Shown here one piece after another: positions 4,604 through 39,198 of a stretch of DNA of 64,000 nucleotides. A program made the translations under genes and the position numbers. The stretch comes from Escherichia phage vB_EcoM_G2540. Positions within the stretch are counted from its first letter, which is position 1; the number at the start of each line of letters is the position of its first letter. The stretch is taken from the sequence record MK327936.1; one strand, written 5' to 3'. Below the pieces are notes generated by a model, which saw only the letters and a list, made by a program, of their open reading frames with translations, was not told the origin of the DNA and ran no database searches.

Positions 4604-4971
4604 TTAAATTTAATGGCTTGAAGAAGACTAATAATTCTCAAGCGACTTCCTTCATCTTTAACTGTAAAAGAAAGAGGGTCACCAGATTTCATAGTGATAG
4701 TGCATTCAAAAGCAAAACCTTCGGGAACTTCTTCGAAGAAGTCAAATTCTTCATCATAAATTAGAACATTACTCTGAAAACTGTGAAGAATTTTTCCGTC
4801 ATTTCCAGATGCTGTACTAATCATTGTAACATTATTACCTTTCATATCTTCAACGATAAATTCGCTTGTAGATATTACAGCATTAATAGAACCATTCCTA
4901 TAAATAGCAGAAAATAGATATTTCTTTTCTTCACCTTCGCGAATGCGATATTTCTTACCGATTTTAAACAT
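4600..4971 (-). CDS. hypothetical protein, 123 aa
   Basis: ORF tightly packed with neighbours (start overlaps stop of upstream ORF). Confidence 0.45.
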   Translation of the reverse strand: MFKIGKKYRIREGEEKKYLFSAIYRNGSINAVISTSEFIVEDMKGNNVTMISTASGNDGKILHSFQSNVLIYDEEFDFFEEVPEGFAFECTITMKSGDPLSFTVKDEGSRLRIISLLQAIKFK

Positions 4972-4973
4972 AA

Positions 4974-5150
4974 TTACCCTTTAAGTAAGTCGTAAAATCC
5001 GCCATTCACATGCTTAGGGGCAGAGACTAACCGAATAGCAATCCGATGACAATCAGGACATACATCAGTATCTCTTTCAGAAATTTTCTTGATTTTTTCG
5101 TATTCTTTTGCGCAGTCTTTTGATTGACATTTATAATCATAAAGCGGCAT
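4974..5150 (-). CDS. small zinc-ribbon protein, 58 aa (below the ORF-track size cut-off)
   Basis: hand translation MPLYDYKCQSKDCAKEYEKIKKISERDTDVCPDCHRIAIRLVSAPKHVNGGFYDLLKG; two CxxC pairs; fills the gap between flanking ORFs. Confidence 0.45.
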   Translation of the reverse strand: MPLYDYKCQSKDCAKEYEKIKKISERDTDVCPDCHRIAIRLVSAPKHVNGGFYDLLKG

Positions 5151-5152
5151 AA

Positions 5153-5566
5153 TTATTCCTTAAAGTGAGCTTTCAACATCTGATACAAGGACCATGCCTG
5201 TTCATCATTTTCAATAGTAACTTTCATTACAGGGAATTTAGATTGATCAGTTATCGGTGCAGATTCTTCCTGCTCTTCAGCTGCCTGGTATGGATTTTCA
5301 ACTTCATTAAAGAATTCAGCTTCATTCGATGAAAGCCAAATAAAATCTTCATCCAAAATATCTTTACCAGAAGATAGTACTAAATTTCCAGCAAATGACA
5401 TAATTTTAATAGGACGCCCAAGAGCATCCACATCTAAAATTTTAAAAGGATGCATACCTAAACGGCGTGCATAGATTCCGTTATCAGTATGGTCTTTAAT
5501 AAAATTTTCTTGAGCTTGTTTATTTTTAAACTGATACCATTTATTAACTTCAAATTTAATAGCCAT
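5153..5566 (-). CDS. hypothetical protein, 137 aa (goF position by synteny)
   Basis: ORF in the position and approximate size of T4 goF; no motif recognised. Confidence 0.4.
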
Positions 5567-5781
5567 TAATAAATTTCCTTCCAGTAAGTTGTACCATCTT
5601 CAGTGATTTCACGAAATACACCGTAAATTGGTTGTTTATCCCCAACCTTTTCATACACATAAACCGAAGTCAAGTGAGTAAACTTAGCAGTGTGTTCCTT
5701 TTGAACTACTACCAAATCTGGATCGAATAACACATCTTCAAATTCGTCATTAGTGCAGTTCTGAACAATTTTACGTTTCAT
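5566..5781 (-). CDS. hypothetical protein, 71 aa (cef position by synteny)
   Basis: 71-aa ORF, size and position consistent with T4 cef; sequence identity not verified. Confidence 0.35.
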
Positions 5782-33831: not shown

Positions 33832-35512
33832 TCTTAGCTAAACTAAATCTACCAACTTTTTCCATCTGAATATGCTGACCATATTCTTGTGGGTCATGGT
33901 CTTTATGTGAAATTATGAAGAAGTTGGTATCCTTCAAACCATCTAAAATTTTAGCTACATTTTTAATACCTTCAGCATCAAATGCACCGTCATACACTTC
34001 ATCAAGAAATAAACAACTTATTTTAACACCTGAAACTTTTTCAGCAATATCACGCCAAGTAAATAAAAGAGCAATATCAATTCGTGCTTTTTCACCTTGA
34101 CTGAATGAAGCATAACTAAAATCTTCACGACCACGGGATTTAATTGTCTCATTAAATTCTTCATCTAATGTAAACACATAATCCGCTTCCATTATTTTAA
34201 GATAATGGTTAATCTGCTTATTAAATAATGGAATGTACTTTTTAATAATAGCACCTTTAATACCAGAATCTTTGAGCATATCAGTCAAAATTCCTCGGTG
34301 GTATTTTTCCATTACTAAATTAGTTTTTGTCTTAACAATTTTATCAAGTTCTTCTTGAAGCAGTGCTATTTCATCAGCATGGTCAATAAACTCAGAAGAT
34401 GCTTTTTCTATAGCCGCTTTAACTTTTTTAGCTTTATCTACCGTCGTGATTAGAGATTGCTTTTTATTGCGAATATCATTTGCCAGCGACTGCTGGGTTT
34501 TAATATTATCTCGGTATTCATCAACAAGAACTTTTAAATTATCACGATGTGTTGAAAGCTGTTCAAACGAATGCGTGCATTCAGAAACTTTATCTTTAAT
34601 TTTAGAAACAACTTTATCACCGGAACTTAATTGTGACAAACAGGTTGGACATAATCCACCTTCGTGATACATATTAATGACTTTATTATATGAGTCAATT
34701 TTTGATTTAATTAAAACTGCTTCTTGACCGATTTTATTAAATGCATCAGTCGGGTCTTCATCCAAAACAATATTAACTAATCTTTCATTAGCTTCTTCTA
34801 TTTCCGATTTTAGCGTTCTAGCTTCTTTTGCCAAATCATCGTACATATTTTGCAGACGAGTAAGGTTGTCACCCGTTAATTTTTTCTGGCGTTCAACGTT
34901 ATCATTATATATTTTAATTTGTTGGATAATACTATCTTTTTTAACATCAAGCACTTGGTTCTGCGAATTTAATTCACGTATTAGTGCTTTATTAAGCTTA
35001 TCCATTTCAGCTAATGTTCCTACCTCGAGCAGGTCTTCCACAAGCTTTCTTCGCGCAGGGGTCGACAAACCCATGAAAGGGGTATACCCTGCTGTACCAA
35101 GGACAACAATCTGCTTGAAACTGGCATATGACATTCCGATAAGCTGTTCAAATTCTGCTTGGAAATCTTTACTGCTGGCAGATTCATTAAGACGTGTACC
35201 GTTAACGGTGATTTCGAAAACGTTTGGTTTTTGTCCTCTTTTGATATAGTACTTTTTCTCATCATATTCCATCCACAGTTCAACTAAAAGTTCTTTCTTA
35301 TTTGTGCTGTTTATTAATTGACCTTTCTTTACATCACGGAATGGCTTGCCAAAAAGCCCAAATGTGATGGCTTCTAACATAGTAGACTTACCACCGCCAT
35401 TTCGTCCAGTAATAAGAGTTTTTTGAACCTTATCTAATTGAATGTCAATAGGATTTCCACCTACTGACATTATATTTTGATACCTAACTCGGTTTAGTTT
35501 AAAATTCTTCAC
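33824..35512 (-). CDS. 46: recombination nuclease subunit gp46 (Rad50/SbcC-like ATPase), 562 aa
   Basis: Walker A GRNGGGKST, long coiled-coil middle, signature/Walker B at C-terminus; T4 length ~560. Confidence 0.85.
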   Translation of the reverse strand: MKNFKLNRVRYQNIMSVGGNPIDIQLDKVQKTLITGRNGGGKSTMLEAITFGLFGKPFRDVKKGQLINSTNKKELLVELWMEYDEKKYYIKRGQKPNVFEITVNGTRLNESASSKDFQAEFEQLIGMSYASFKQIVVLGTAGYTPFMGLSTPARRKLVEDLLEVGTLAEMDKLNKALIRELNSQNQVLDVKKDSIIQQIKIYNDNVERQKKLTGDNLTRLQNMYDDLAKEARTLKSEIEEANERLVNIVLDEDPTDAFNKIGQEAVLIKSKIDSYNKVINMYHEGGLCPTCLSQLSSGDKVVSKIKDKVSECTHSFEQLSTHRDNLKVLVDEYRDNIKTQQSLANDIRNKKQSLITTVDKAKKVKAAIEKASSEFIDHADEIALLQEELDKIVKTKTNLVMEKYHRGILTDMLKDSGIKGAIIKKYIPLFNKQINHYLKIMEADYVFTLDEEFNETIKSRGREDFSYASFSQGEKARIDIALLFTWRDIAEKVSGVKISCLFLDEVYDGAFDAEGIKNVAKILDGLKDTNFFIISHKDHDPQEYGQHIQMEKVGRFSLAKIS

Positions 35513-35772
35513 AAAAGATTCCTTTTAATGTATCTTTTAGACCATTCTATCATATCATCATAATCTAAAAAGTATTCATCAAATTCAGCCATGCAAACAA
35601 CACCTTGTGCTGCTTTTGATGTGATATAAATTATTCCAACATATCTAGAATCTTCTTCGGTATAATCAATATTTGCTATGAATTCATCATTAATGTCAAA
35701 TGTCGAAAACTTCACAGTATGCATCCTTAATACAAGATACAGCCATATCTTGTAATGATTTAGGTGTGTCAT
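35509..35772 (-). CDS. small hypothetical protein (46.1 position)
   Basis: 87-aa ORF between 47 and 46. Confidence 0.4.
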   Translation of the reverse strand: MTHLNHYKIWLYLVLRMHTVKFSTFDINDEFIANIDYTEEDSRYVGIIYITSKAAQGVVCMAEFDEYFLDYDDMIEWSKRYIKRNLL

Positions 35773-35959
35773 TATCTAAAATGTTGAAGTTAAAAGATAC
35801 AGCCCAGTCAGTGCAGACCGTAACCTTTTTAATACAATTATCTTCAACCTCTAACGGTTCAAACCAATATTCAATAATTTCTTTATGACCAATATCATCT
35901 TTTACTTCGCATTCAAAATGCTGACTCATCATAACATTTTTAAATTCATCAAAAGTCAT
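35696..35959 (-). CDS. small hypothetical protein (46.2 position)
   Basis: 87-aa ORF overlapping the previous one; start uncertain. Confidence 0.4.
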   Translation of the reverse strand: MTFDEFKNVMMSQHFECEVKDDIGHKEIIEYWFEPLEVEDNCIKKVTVCTDWAVSFNFNILDNDTPKSLQDMAVSCIKDAYCEVFDI

Positions 35960-36975
35960 TGTGTTGCCTCTACATATAACTGATTTGCATATTGAATAAG
36001 TGCTTCACGGTCAGAATCAGTGATGTCTGGAATTGCATTAATGTATTCTTCCATCAACGTCTGAAGAGATTGAACTTCAACTTCTTCACTTTCATCTGAC
36101 TCGACAGAGTTATCAATCTTTGACACAACTCGTAATGAATGCACAACTTTTTCTAGTTCAGATTCGAACTTCGTTAGATTTTTGTCTACTTCAGTTACTA
36201 TAACACGTACTGATAGATTTGTAAAATCTTTATAGTCAATTTTTCCTTTAAATGGATAATGAATTCTGCGATGCCAAGTAGTGTTGTTTGGAATAAATTC
36301 CATTCGTTCTGTTTCTGTATCAAACATCCAGAACCCGCGAGGGTCATTCTCGTCACCTGCAGTTAGTGTCCATGGTGTCCCAATATATCTGACATTTGCA
36401 GCCTCAGAGATAGTATGGAAGTGACCAGACCACACTTCTTTATAAGTCTTAAGGAAATCAGGTTCAAGACCGTGAGATTTCATTCCTTTATAAAAATAAA
36501 ATCCATTCAGTTCCCAGTGACCAACACAAAAAGAAGCAGATGAAGTTTTGATGTGTTCAAGAATTTCACCAGTATTTTCTTCGCACATCCAAGGAATCAA
36601 ATCAATCAAACATCCGTCAAAATCTACTGTAGTAGGCTTATCATATACTTTAACATTAGGATATTTAGCCAAAAGCTCAGTAGAGGCATTTGGATGCATT
36701 ACATTTTTGTAGTGGAGATCGTGATTTCCTACAATAGTATGTAATGTGATTCCAGCGTCATCAAGCATTTGAACTATTTCACGGGCAAACTCCATAGTTT
36801 TATGCGTGATTGCTTTTCGCACATCAAAAATATCACCATATTGAATCCATACAGTAATTCCATTTTTCTTAGAATATTCTATCGCTTGCTTAATTCCATC
36901 AATTTGAATACCGCGAATCCACTCATCATCAGCTTTAACGCCTAAATGCCAATCACCCAAGTTTAGTATTTTCAT
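35956..36975 (-). CDS. 47: recombination nuclease subunit gp47 (Mre11/SbcD-like), 339 aa
   Basis: 339 aa as in T4; phosphoesterase motifs (LGDWHLG, GNHD). Confidence 0.85.
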   Translation of the reverse strand: MKILNLGDWHLGVKADDEWIRGIQIDGIKQAIEYSKKNGITVWIQYGDIFDVRKAITHKTMEFAREIVQMLDDAGITLHTIVGNHDLHYKNVMHPNASTELLAKYPNVKVYDKPTTVDFDGCLIDLIPWMCEENTGEILEHIKTSSASFCVGHWELNGFYFYKGMKSHGLEPDFLKTYKEVWSGHFHTISEAANVRYIGTPWTLTAGDENDPRGFWMFDTETERMEFIPNNTTWHRRIHYPFKGKIDYKDFTNLSVRVIVTEVDKNLTKFESELEKVVHSLRVVSKIDNSVESDESEEVEVQSLQTLMEEYINAIPDITDSDREALIQYANQLYVEATQ

Positions 36976-37576
36976 GGTGTCTTTTCCATCCTAATTTAGC
37001 TGCTTTTGAAACCAGTTCTTTAATTTTTCCTTTTGTCCATTCAGGACCAGGAGGTTCATGACATAACATTTGCTTAACTCCGTTATTATACCATTTTTTA
37101 CCTTTATTATGTGATGAAGCTTTAAATTTATTTGACCTTCCTTTTACATAACCTTCTGGAATATAAGGCAAAAAGGCAGATTTTCCTGTTAATGGATCAT
37201 GTGAATGTATATTTCCTTTACAATTATGAGAACCATATAATGGATGATTTTGTCCTTTATTATCTCTTCCAAATGAACCTTTTGGAGCAGCATATGACAT
37301 ATTAAAGAATAATGGATTTTTAACTGCATCATGCAATCGTTGATAATATAACTCGCATTTAATAGCTTCTTCACGCGTATCAAATTCAGCTAAAATGCAT
37401 GAATCAAATAAGTGAGGATTATCTGAAAGCTCTTTATTATAAATTTTCTTATACTTTTTAGATAAAACTGAACCATGATATCCAGCTAAATGCCTATCTA
37501 AAGACGTAGATCCAATATAAAAAGGAGGAAGTTTATCTCCACTATATATTGTTAAATAAGTTATATATTTTTTCAT
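36953..37576 (-). mobile_element. GIY-YIG (Seg-like) homing endonuclease, 207 aa
   Basis: GIY-YIG module YITYLTIY...FYIGSTS with downstream Arg and Glu; basic C-terminal region; 3' end overlaps the gene 47 start by 23 nt. Confidence 0.7.
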
Positions 37577-37736
37577 ATATCAAGAACCGTCATTGAAATG
37601 CAAAATAAAATTATTGAAATAAACCCATCTGGTGTGCTAAAGAACCCAATCCAACATGCTTTAGTGAATAGATAAAATGCAAGAAAAAGTATCACATATC
37701 CAAGAAATATCATTATATCAAACTCCGTATAAAGCT

Positions 37737-37754
37737 AAAGGGCCGAAGCCCTTT
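37737..37754 (-). terminator. intrinsic terminator after alpha-gt
   Basis: aaaggg-ccgaa-gcccttt hairpin overlapping/adjacent to the alpha-gt stop. Confidence 0.5.
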
Positions 37755-38955
37755 ATTTTGTAATAATGTCAAACTGTTCTTTAAAGCAGAAGCTTGAATC
37801 TTGATGCTGATACAAAAATTCATATGCTTTTTCACGCTCACGGTCATAAAGAGCTCGGTCAGATGACAGTTCTTTAATACGTTCAAATGTTGATTCCATA
37901 TCATTTTCATCAAACCAAATGATACCGCTATCATGCGAGGTCAAAGGAGTATTATCAACACGGAATTTTAAATTTTCGCCAGTAGATTTCCAAAATACCG
38001 GAATTGTTCCACATGCACCAAGCTCGAGATGAGTATATTCTAAAGAGCGCTGTAGATATTTTTTATCCAACTTACTCAACTGATAACCAAATCCGGATTT
38101 ACTCATACGTTCAAGCATTTCGCTATTTACATAACGATCGAGAATTTGCGTTGGTAAATTAGGAGCAATTTTAATTTGGTCTACTTGATGAAGACGATAA
38201 TACTCGTATGGAATTCCTTTTTCTTTAATAGGAATGAACGCTGGAGAACGTTCCAGACCTTCCATAATAGTACTTAGTCCTGCAGGTTTAAGATGTTTTT
38301 CGTGAAAATCAAACATCTGATAAAAACCTTTCCATGTAGTCGTACGACCAATCCAACGGTTGACATTCATGTTAATTTCAGAAACATCTTTCCAGTAGGT
38401 TGACCGAACCTTCGCAATATCCATAGGAGGCTGAAAGTTATATACGGTCGGCGCTTCTTCAATATCATCAAACAGAGAAACAGTTTCTGGATACCATTCT
38501 TTCATCAGAACTTTATTAAAATCACCATTATCAGAATGGCTAAAAATAACATCAGCTCGACGAACAGTTTCTTCTAATCCCAAATTTCGACGCAAAGAAA
38601 GAGAAGAATGGTCATGTTGATAAACTACAACACGAACCGAAGGTTTAATGTTATCAATAATTTTTTTATAGTTATTAATAGTGTCTTCTTCAACTGAAGT
38701 AGCAGGAACTGAATTGATAATTAGAATATCACAATCATTTACCAGCTTAAGTGTTTTATCGTATTCTTTTGCCAATAAAACCGGAATTGAAAATGATTTA
38801 TAATCATGCGCACAGTTACGAGTAAATGATTTATCTTTGGCATAAACCAAAGTTACTTCATGACCATTTTTAATAAACCAATCACGTTGCTCGAGTGAGA
38901 ATTTTGTTACACCACAACCTTCAAGACCTCGAGCCATAAAAATACATACTTTCAT
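37753..38955 (-). CDS. agt: DNA alpha-glucosyltransferase, 400 aa
   Basis: 400 aa; N-terminus M.VCIFMARGLEGCGVTKFSLEQRDWFIKNGHEVTLVYAKDKSF closely matches recalled T4 alpha-gt. Confidence 0.85.
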   Translation of the reverse strand: MKVCIFMARGLEGCGVTKFSLEQRDWFIKNGHEVTLVYAKDKSFTRNCAHDYKSFSIPVLLAKEYDKTLKLVNDCDILIINSVPATSVEEDTINNYKKIIDNIKPSVRVVVYQHDHSSLSLRRNLGLEETVRRADVIFSHSDNGDFNKVLMKEWYPETVSLFDDIEEAPTVYNFQPPMDIAKVRSTYWKDVSEINMNVNRWIGRTTTWKGFYQMFDFHEKHLKPAGLSTIMEGLERSPAFIPIKEKGIPYEYYRLHQVDQIKIAPNLPTQILDRYVNSEMLERMSKSGFGYQLSKLDKKYLQRSLEYTHLELGACGTIPVFWKSTGENLKFRVDNTPLTSHDSGIIWFDENDMESTFERIKELSSDRALYDREREKAYEFLYQHQDSSFCFKEQFDIITK

Positions 38956-39004
38956 TTAATATCCTCTTTGTTTTGGTTTATTTTACCAAAAATTTATAAA
39001 GCAA

Positions 39005-39024
39005 TATAGGAGCCGAAGCTCCTA
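39005..39024 (-). terminator. intrinsic terminator
   Basis: ataggagc-cgaa-gctcctat hairpin upstream of alpha-gt. Confidence 0.5.
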
Positions 39025-39198
39025 TCCGCATAATACGCCATACAAAGGCTCATTAGAACTTCTAAATTTTATGCGCTTATATGTTATAGTTCCTTCTGCT
39101 TTAGCTTTATCATAAGACTCTTTAAAGCGTCTCATCATTTCCTCTTTAGAGGAACGAATTTTATTATAATCTATTTCAGAAGTCTGGATGTTCATCTT

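Follow-up and report, generated by a model that had tools for sequence, protein, structure and literature searches.

The 207-residue open reading frame set against the start of gene 47 is best explained as a free-standing, intron-less GIY-YIG homing endonuclease gene of the Seg type that would target the empty 47.1/47 junction, a reading to which we give a probability of about 0.75 from sequence comparisons and a predicted protein model. The window (i.e., the whole 64,000-nucleotide stretch of DNA analysed) carried on its minus strand, in this order, a-gt, a hairpin, 47.1, the endonuclease ORF and gene 47. The features of the region were the following, in window coordinates.

37753-38955, minus strand: a-gt (Pfam AGT, E 4e-237)
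37736..37755, no strand: G+C-rich hairpin between a-gt and 47.1, outside the insert and found in T4 too
37573..37713, minus strand: gene 47.1, upstream neighbour, 46 aa, a predicted membrane protein in the T4 annotation (PHROG 6693, E 8e-31)
37570..37576, minus strand: left copy of the 7-nt repeat ATGAAAA, holding the endonuclease ATG (T4 alignment; sequence)
36953..37576 including the stop, minus strand: putative homing endonuclease gene, free-standing, 207 aa (ORF listing; PHROG 10820, labelled "HNH endonuclease", E 1e-94; PHROG 314, "homing endonuclease", E 5e-18)
37277..37576, minus strand: predicted N-terminal GIY-YIG catalytic domain, about residues 1-100
36956..37276, minus strand: C-terminal half, about residues 101-207, presumed DNA-binding/target-recognition module (AF2 secondary structure)
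36969..36975, minus strand: right copy of the 7-nt repeat ATGAAAA, which is the gene 47 start (T4 alignment; 601 bp between copies)
36953..36975, minus strand: 23-nt overlap of the endonuclease 3' end with the gene 47 start (ORF listing and sequence)
36958..36967, minus strand: substitution block, four synonymous changes within codons 3-6 of gene 47; may be an immunity site or a co-converted one (allele comparison)
35956..36975, minus strand: gene 47, downstream neighbour and presumed target, 339 aa, Mre11/SbcD-like nuclease subunit (Pfam Metallophos)

The endonuclease ORF started with ATG and its translation began MKKYITYLTIYSGDKLPPFYIGSTS (ORF listing). A sequence-only reading of this DNA had placed the 207-aa ORF just upstream of gene 47 on the same strand, with its last 23 nt overlapping that gene; the ORF listing gave both genes on the minus strand, and the ORF (36953..37576) and gene 47 (35956..36975) share positions 36953-36975, hence an overlap of exactly this length. 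The last seven endonuclease codons and the stop (..H E N T K L G *) lay out of frame on gene 47 codons 1-8, and the TGA stop was formed within gene 47 codons 7-8 (GGT GAT). Gene 47 of the window shared 96% nucleotide identity with T4 gene 47, and the hairpin between a-gt and 47.1 bore a terminator annotation in several related records. Judged from its conservation, the endonuclease ORF is not a chance reading frame: base-by-base comparison of six verified carrier records found it intact in every one, tblastn recovered it full-length at 97.6-100% identity from verified Tequatrovirus records among the matches listed, and its homologues were conserved across genera.

The insertion was defined by comparison with T4 (NC_000866), in which 47.1 (36444-36584) overlaps gene 47 (35428-36447) by ATGA, with no gene between them. 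The alignment of the window to T4 was identical up to ...GATATATGAAAA and resumed at ATGAAAAT..., leaving a 601-bp insert between 47.1 and 47. The endonuclease ATG occupied the T4 position of the gene 47 ATG, overlapping the 47.1 stop (ATGA), and gene 47 of the window began inside the endonuclease 3' end, preceded by ..TTAGGATGGAAAAGACACC. The suspicion that this arrangement differs from that of T4 was thus borne out, as T4 47.1 abuts gene 47 directly, and comparison of the interval between 47 and a-gt among T-even genomes showed that the insert was missing from T4, T2, RB14 and others. None of the 15 T4 homing endonucleases tabulated in a review resides at the 47.1/47 site (PMC2988022).

Other endonuclease genes varied in presence around the same operon. 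In T4, the interval from a-gt to a-gt.2 holds mobB, an HNH homing endonuclease gene, and the gene-47 cassette is missing; in the window, mobB was absent and only a spacer of about 66 nt (38956-39021) separated a-gt from the a-gt.2 homologue (39022-39195). A separate annotated homing endonuclease gene (about 284 aa) was found between 46.1 and 46 in T2, SHFML-26 and BCPEco_001. It spanned positions 4791-5645 of the extracted loci of SHFML-26 (L041) and BCPEco_001 (L043), and was split into two ORFs (4791-5405 and 5386-5643) in the T2 record (L046). This gene was missing from T4 and from the window, where the matching site is 35509-35512. With this second gene, the 46-47 operon has at least two endonuclease insertion sites.

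The assignment of the N-terminal domain came from profiles, conserved residues and the predicted fold. The protein matched the Pfam GIY-YIG family (PF01541) just under the gathering threshold (21.4 bits for a cutoff of 22.6; E 3e-4, residues 4-84), and an NCBIfam search returned one weak match, judged spurious. Since neither the protein by itself nor a profile of 51 sequences retrieved anything relevant from the PDB by sequence, I-TevI included, the fold was tested through a predicted model. This AF2 model (mean pLDDT 85, with residues 1-90 at 93-98) retrieved the I-TevI catalytic domain at ranks 1-3 in a Foldseek search against the PDB (probability 0.96-1.0; TM 0.52-0.61, target-normalised), followed by Slx1 and UvrC, and all of its named BFVD structural neighbours were GIY-YIG, NUMOD or homing endonucleases. 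Homologues collected at E<=1e-5 numbered 170, of which 51 were aligned (alignment A2). In the numbering of the window protein, Y7, Y11 and Y20-I21-G22 were each conserved in 50 of these 51 sequences, K/R28 in 42, and E75 and N92 in all of them, their equivalence to I-TevI residues being judged by order and spacing rather than by residue-level superposition.

Among characterised proteins tested, the closest sequence relative was T4 SegA, encoded between uvsX and beta-gt, which matched the family profile with an hhalign probability of 94% (E 9e-8) across the YIG...GY.GS...E...N core and into the linker. SegF, the other Seg protein covered by this comparison, showed no detectable similarity to the profile. 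When the 51 aligned homologues were searched against Pfam, 15 matched PF01541 (E<0.01, best 2.4e-5), 25 matched NUMOD3 and one matched SegE_GIY-YIG, while an HNH model was matched neither by the window protein nor by any of the 51. The proposal of a Seg-like GIY-YIG enzyme is therefore supported by fold neighbours, conserved residues and the SegA match, and the structure prediction, which could have given another fold, returned GIY-YIG. On the strength of these profiles and of the model, the N-terminal domain is accepted as a Seg-like GIY-YIG nuclease. The "HNH endonuclease" label carried by many RefSeq records and by PHROG 10820 was rejected as a misnomer, given the fold neighbours among GIY-YIG enzymes and the lack of any HNH model match.

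The C-terminal half set the gene-47 family apart from other homologues. The AF2 model was in two parts joined by a low-confidence linker (residues 100-120), and its C-terminal half was made of two beta-hairpins and a terminal helix. Neither Pfam nor NCBIfam models of known DNA-binding domains matched the protein, and NUMOD3 (Pfam) was not detected in it. Many homologues matched only the N-terminal 55% or so and had NUMOD3 tails, whereas those matching over the full length were located beside gene 47 at all eight loci, window included. The seven other loci were the following.

QL01-like coliphage (L024): 205 aa, 14-nt overlap with gene 47
vB_EcoM_005 (L027): 251 aa, ATGA (4-nt) overlap with gene 47
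Klebsiella KP185-like (L032/L033): 202 aa, 17-nt overlap with gene 47
Aeromonas L9-6 (L034): 249 aa, 23-nt overlap with gene 47, same TGA in GGTGAT
Erwinia FBB1 (L048): 201 aa, 14-nt overlap with gene 47
Metagenomic contig (L049): 205 aa, 23-nt overlap with gene 47
Serratia LC53 (L047): 210 aa, 121 nt upstream of gene 47

The reading-frame relation to gene 47 was identical in the window and in the QL01-like, Klebsiella (L032) and Aeromonas loci, in all of which the endonuclease codons ..(H/N)-E-N.. overlay the ATGAAAAT of gene 47. This start was found in 27 of 28 gene 47 loci, followed by GG(T/C)GA(T/C)T(G/T)GCA, the coding sequence of the metallophosphatase motif GD(W/L)H. Orthologues from other genera were 50-76% identical to the window protein, for 59-74% identity (protein or DNA) of gene 47 across the same genera. 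Pairwise dN/dS between the window gene and four of these orthologues ranged from 0.13 to 0.24, and was at most 0.29 over all comparable cross-genus pairs, so that the protein appears to be under purifying selection.

Paralogues bearing NUMOD3 instead of this C-terminal half lay beside gene 39: in Yersinia phage TG1 (L050, 2001-2684) and coliphage IME281 (L051, 2001-2678), they overlapped the gene 39 start by 8 nt and were 45-58% identical to the query over its N-terminal 60-95%. These paralogues make up a second sub-family whose members sit flush against a gene start. Homing endonucleases are classically modular in just this way, one nuclease domain being combined with alternative tails that are each tied to a different conserved gene start. 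The way in which the tails co-vary with location, gene 47 or gene 39, argues that the C-terminal half may read the gene 47 start region. The QL01-like carrier differed upstream of the cassette (L024, 1-2500), where neither 47.1 nor a-gt homologues were found and an a-gt.2-like gene directly preceded the cassette. Its cassette-less relatives (L021-L023, L030) retained a 47.1-like ORF, hence the cassette appears to have replaced 47.1 in this lineage.

Within Tequatrovirus, the cassette was patchily distributed. Of the 521 phage records matched by a 1301-nt query spanning the element, 68 were matched over its whole length, and junction-specific queries distinguished 66 carrier records from about 432 with an uninterrupted 47.1/47 junction, i.e., about 13% of records with the cassette and 87% without, in counts that contain GenBank/RefSeq duplicates and records that are not phylogenetically independent. 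The cassette differed by only 0-4 of 624 nt among the six verified carriers. Their flanks were more diverse, with differences of 2-4% in gene 47 past nt 100 and of up to 10% in a-gt, and carriers diverged from one another in these flanks as much as they did from non-carriers. The haplotype invariant among carriers was short, reaching from about -47 to about +86 relative to the insertion point. That copies so alike occur in such varied surroundings is consistent with recent horizontal transfer and short co-conversion tracts; alternatively, the cassette may have inserted once, and its flanks may then have recombined intensely. A mosaic hot spot was also observed in the 3' half of a-gt (window about 38040-38370, or -465 to -790 from the 47.1 stop), where Tequatrovirus genomes that are close elsewhere, cassette carriers among them, diverged by about 9-10%.

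Two records suggested decay of the cassette and were set aside. ERS-1 (PP337211, L039) had six 1-nt indels in the 624-nt gene, which frameshifted the ORF, and KNP1 (KX452694, L040) had a run of N within the gene; both are flagged UNVERIFIED. Apparent decay or deletion in ERS-1 and KNP1 is probably a sequencing or assembly artefact, and decay or deletion in ERS-1 and KNP1/KNP5 ("internally deleted") was not counted, these records being unreliable.

A block of four synonymous differences in codons 3-6 of gene 47, located 8-18 nt from the insertion point, also set carriers apart from most non-carriers. Carriers had A, C, C and G at nt 9, 10, 15 and 18, where the T4-type allele has T, T, T and A (ATG AAA ATA CTA AAC TTG GGT in carriers; ATG AAA ATT TTA AAT TTA GGT in the cassette-less genomes first examined). 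Beyond the block, the next 70-100 nt or so of gene 47 were identical between carriers and those cassette-less genomes. The block was present in 65 of the 66 carrier records and in about 9 of about 432 non-carriers, and the sole carrier with the T4-type allele was ERS-1. Cassette-less phages with the block and an otherwise T4-like junction were SHFML-26, BCPEco_001, BCPSen_003, PBM-1, Ec_YwIITB1, UGKSEcP1 and EPIMAM01, and the block was nearly complete in UGKSEcP2, also cassette-less. RB14 (L045) displayed a single block change, T10C, at a cassette-less junction, possibly an intermediate or partially resistant allele.

Cytosine in T-even DNA is glucosylated hydroxymethylcytosine. Three of the four changes put an added C on one strand or the other, and we infer that the block would thereby add three glucosyl-hydroxymethylcytosines. 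A translational reason for the block was considered and dropped: the predicted mRNA accessibility of the gene 47 start, computed for both alleles with and without the cassette, was alike (0.55 vs 0.60; 0.43 vs 0.47), with no meaningful difference.

As far as allele comparisons can tell, the block is a probable immunity or resistance site, and the main competing account is that it represents hitch-hiking donor DNA, a co-conversion remnant, self-protection then coming only from the split target or from a cut site elsewhere. This account is a serious one, to be held at somewhat under even odds. Linkage alone would hold the block with the cassette, its near end being 8 nt away from the insertion point, and its first 15 nt (ATGAAAATACTAAAC) are identical to the beginning of gene 47 in L023, a phage from a different genus that lacks the cassette, so the block could simply be donor sequence. 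Known Seg enzymes can, moreover, cut far from their own gene (PMC2988022). Against a mere remnant, the cassette-free copies of the block lie on two distinct downstream haplotypes, the next polymorphic site being nt 45, 27 nt further on, which implies either very short transfers or selection on the block. ERS-1, the only carrier with the T4-type allele, has its endonuclease ORF frameshifted, in a record flagged as UNVERIFIED, and the uniform predicted mRNA accessibility leaves the translational reason for the block unsupported. In three independent lineages, codons 3-6 differed between carriers and their cassette-less relatives. In the QL01-like and Klebsiella lineages, however, gene 47 was unusually diverged beside the cassette across its entire 5' end (about 100 nt), beyond codons 3-6 and over a background divergence of 8-12%, and for this reason the parallel pattern at codons 3-6 is only suggestive there. 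We tentatively entertain, as a joint reading that falls well short of an even chance, that immunity would be conferred by the three glucosyl-hydroxymethylcytosines in the recognition site, that the allele would circulate cassette-free as resistance, and that the family would have kept to the start codon of the Mre11-like gene from genus to genus within Straboviridae, its C-terminal codons (..HEN..) being locked to the ATGAAAAT of the target. Were the immunity allele genuine, Tequatrovirus would show all three states of the homing-endonuclease life cycle (susceptible, invaded and resistant/empty) at one site.

No T4 late promoter (TATAAATA) was found within the region, and sigma-70-like sites that could serve as a private promoter were not above chance (8 found for 10.7 expected). 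The cassette thus appears to have no promoter of its own and to be transcribed on the 47.1-47-46 message. The same organisation is known for segC, segF, segG and several mob genes, likewise promoterless cassettes on the message of their neighbours (PMC2988022).

Under the preferred reading of a homing endonuclease gene, the gene would be transcribed as part of the 47.1-47-46 message and, in a mixed infection, its product would cut a co-infecting phage that lacks the cassette at its empty 47.1/47 junction, no more than a few tens of bp from where gene 47 starts; the conserved coding sequence of MKIL..GDWH would be read by the C-terminal module. The break would then be repaired from the carrier genome, with the cassette and a short flank (about -47 to +86) copied in, and the carrier would be protected by the insertion itself and probably also by the four synonymous changes in codons 3-6. 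The cut may also fall elsewhere, since for Seg enzymes already characterised a distance of hundreds of bp between gene and cut site is common (PMC2988022).

The cassette could instead be an immobile relic, an old insertion maintained by vertical inheritance and ordinary phage recombination, whose product no longer drives its own spread. Orthologues about as diverged as gene 47 itself (50-76% and 59-74% identity, respectively) would fit long co-residence, and the cassette has no promoter of its own, but we consider a relic unlikely in view of several features. The ORF was intact in the six verified carriers and full-length in the other verified carriers listed, catalytic-type residues were invariant, dN/dS was 0.13-0.29, copies were near-identical in backgrounds with flanks differing by 2-10%, and the distribution was patchy (about 13% of records). 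Such a combination is what an active element in recent spread usually shows. Still less probable, in our view, is co-option for another role, such as nicking host or competitor DNA, aiding gp46/47, or tuning gp47 translation via the overlap. T4 EndoII is indeed a GIY-YIG enzyme that nicks host or competitor DNA; yet about 87% of Tequatrovirus records manage without the gene, and a family tracking one gene start while paralogues with other tails track another is predicted by target-site specificity and not by a general nuclease.

Among known systems, SegA and the gene-47 endonuclease are alike in being free-standing two-module proteins of about 210-220 aa, and differ in their sequence (about 20% identity only), in their site or target (uvsX for SegA, 47 here) and in the NUMOD3-type repeats of SegA, which had no counterpart match in the gene-47 protein. 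SegF (soc/56) and SegG (32/59) resemble the element in organisation, being promoterless cassettes on a host polycistronic message, each adjoining, as it does, an important replication or recombination gene. T4 segF overlaps its neighbour gene 56 by 11 nt, for 23 nt between the endonuclease gene and 47. SegF is located downstream of its target gene, whereas the gene-47 element is upstream and has taken over the start position of its target. Homing with flanking-marker co-conversion and marker exclusion is established for SegF and SegG (PMC2988022); activity is proven for these two enzymes and only predicted for the gene-47 endonuclease. I-TevI, in contrast, is intron-encoded in T4 td, and the free-standing gene-47 endonuclease had no sequence-level PDB match to it and no detected zinc-finger or helix-turn-helix tail. 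The gene-39 paralogues of TG1 and IME281 share with it the nuclease domain and a gene end flush on the start of an essential gene, and differ by their NUMOD3 C-terminal module and by their target, the topoisomerase subunit gene 39.

Among the papers searched, none was found that named or studied this endonuclease gene, although GenBank labels are already in use ("putative homing endonuclease" in BASEL phages, "homing endonuclease" in KP185 and LC53). The gene adds a new and uncharacterised member to a kind already thoroughly known, and does not reveal a new kind of system; its fidelity to the gene 47 start across genera and the three-state allele pattern are useful details that would not surprise a specialist. 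The analysis also corrects a widespread "HNH endonuclease" database label. The products gp46 and gp47 are listed as "possibly" among the exonucleolytic functions in homing (PMC2988022), and gene 47 is therefore a pointed choice of target. Free-standing homing endonuclease genes shape the survival of alleles in co-infection by related phages, which is a practical concern where therapeutic or model T-even phages get mixed. More than 500 sequenced Tequatrovirus records contain susceptible, invaded and possibly resistant alleles, and BASEL carrier phages (bas39 locus-tag series) may be obtainable. The gene-47 junction would thus offer a ready natural system in which to measure how targets on glucosylated DNA are recognised, how long co-conversion tracts are and how the endonuclease life cycle runs.
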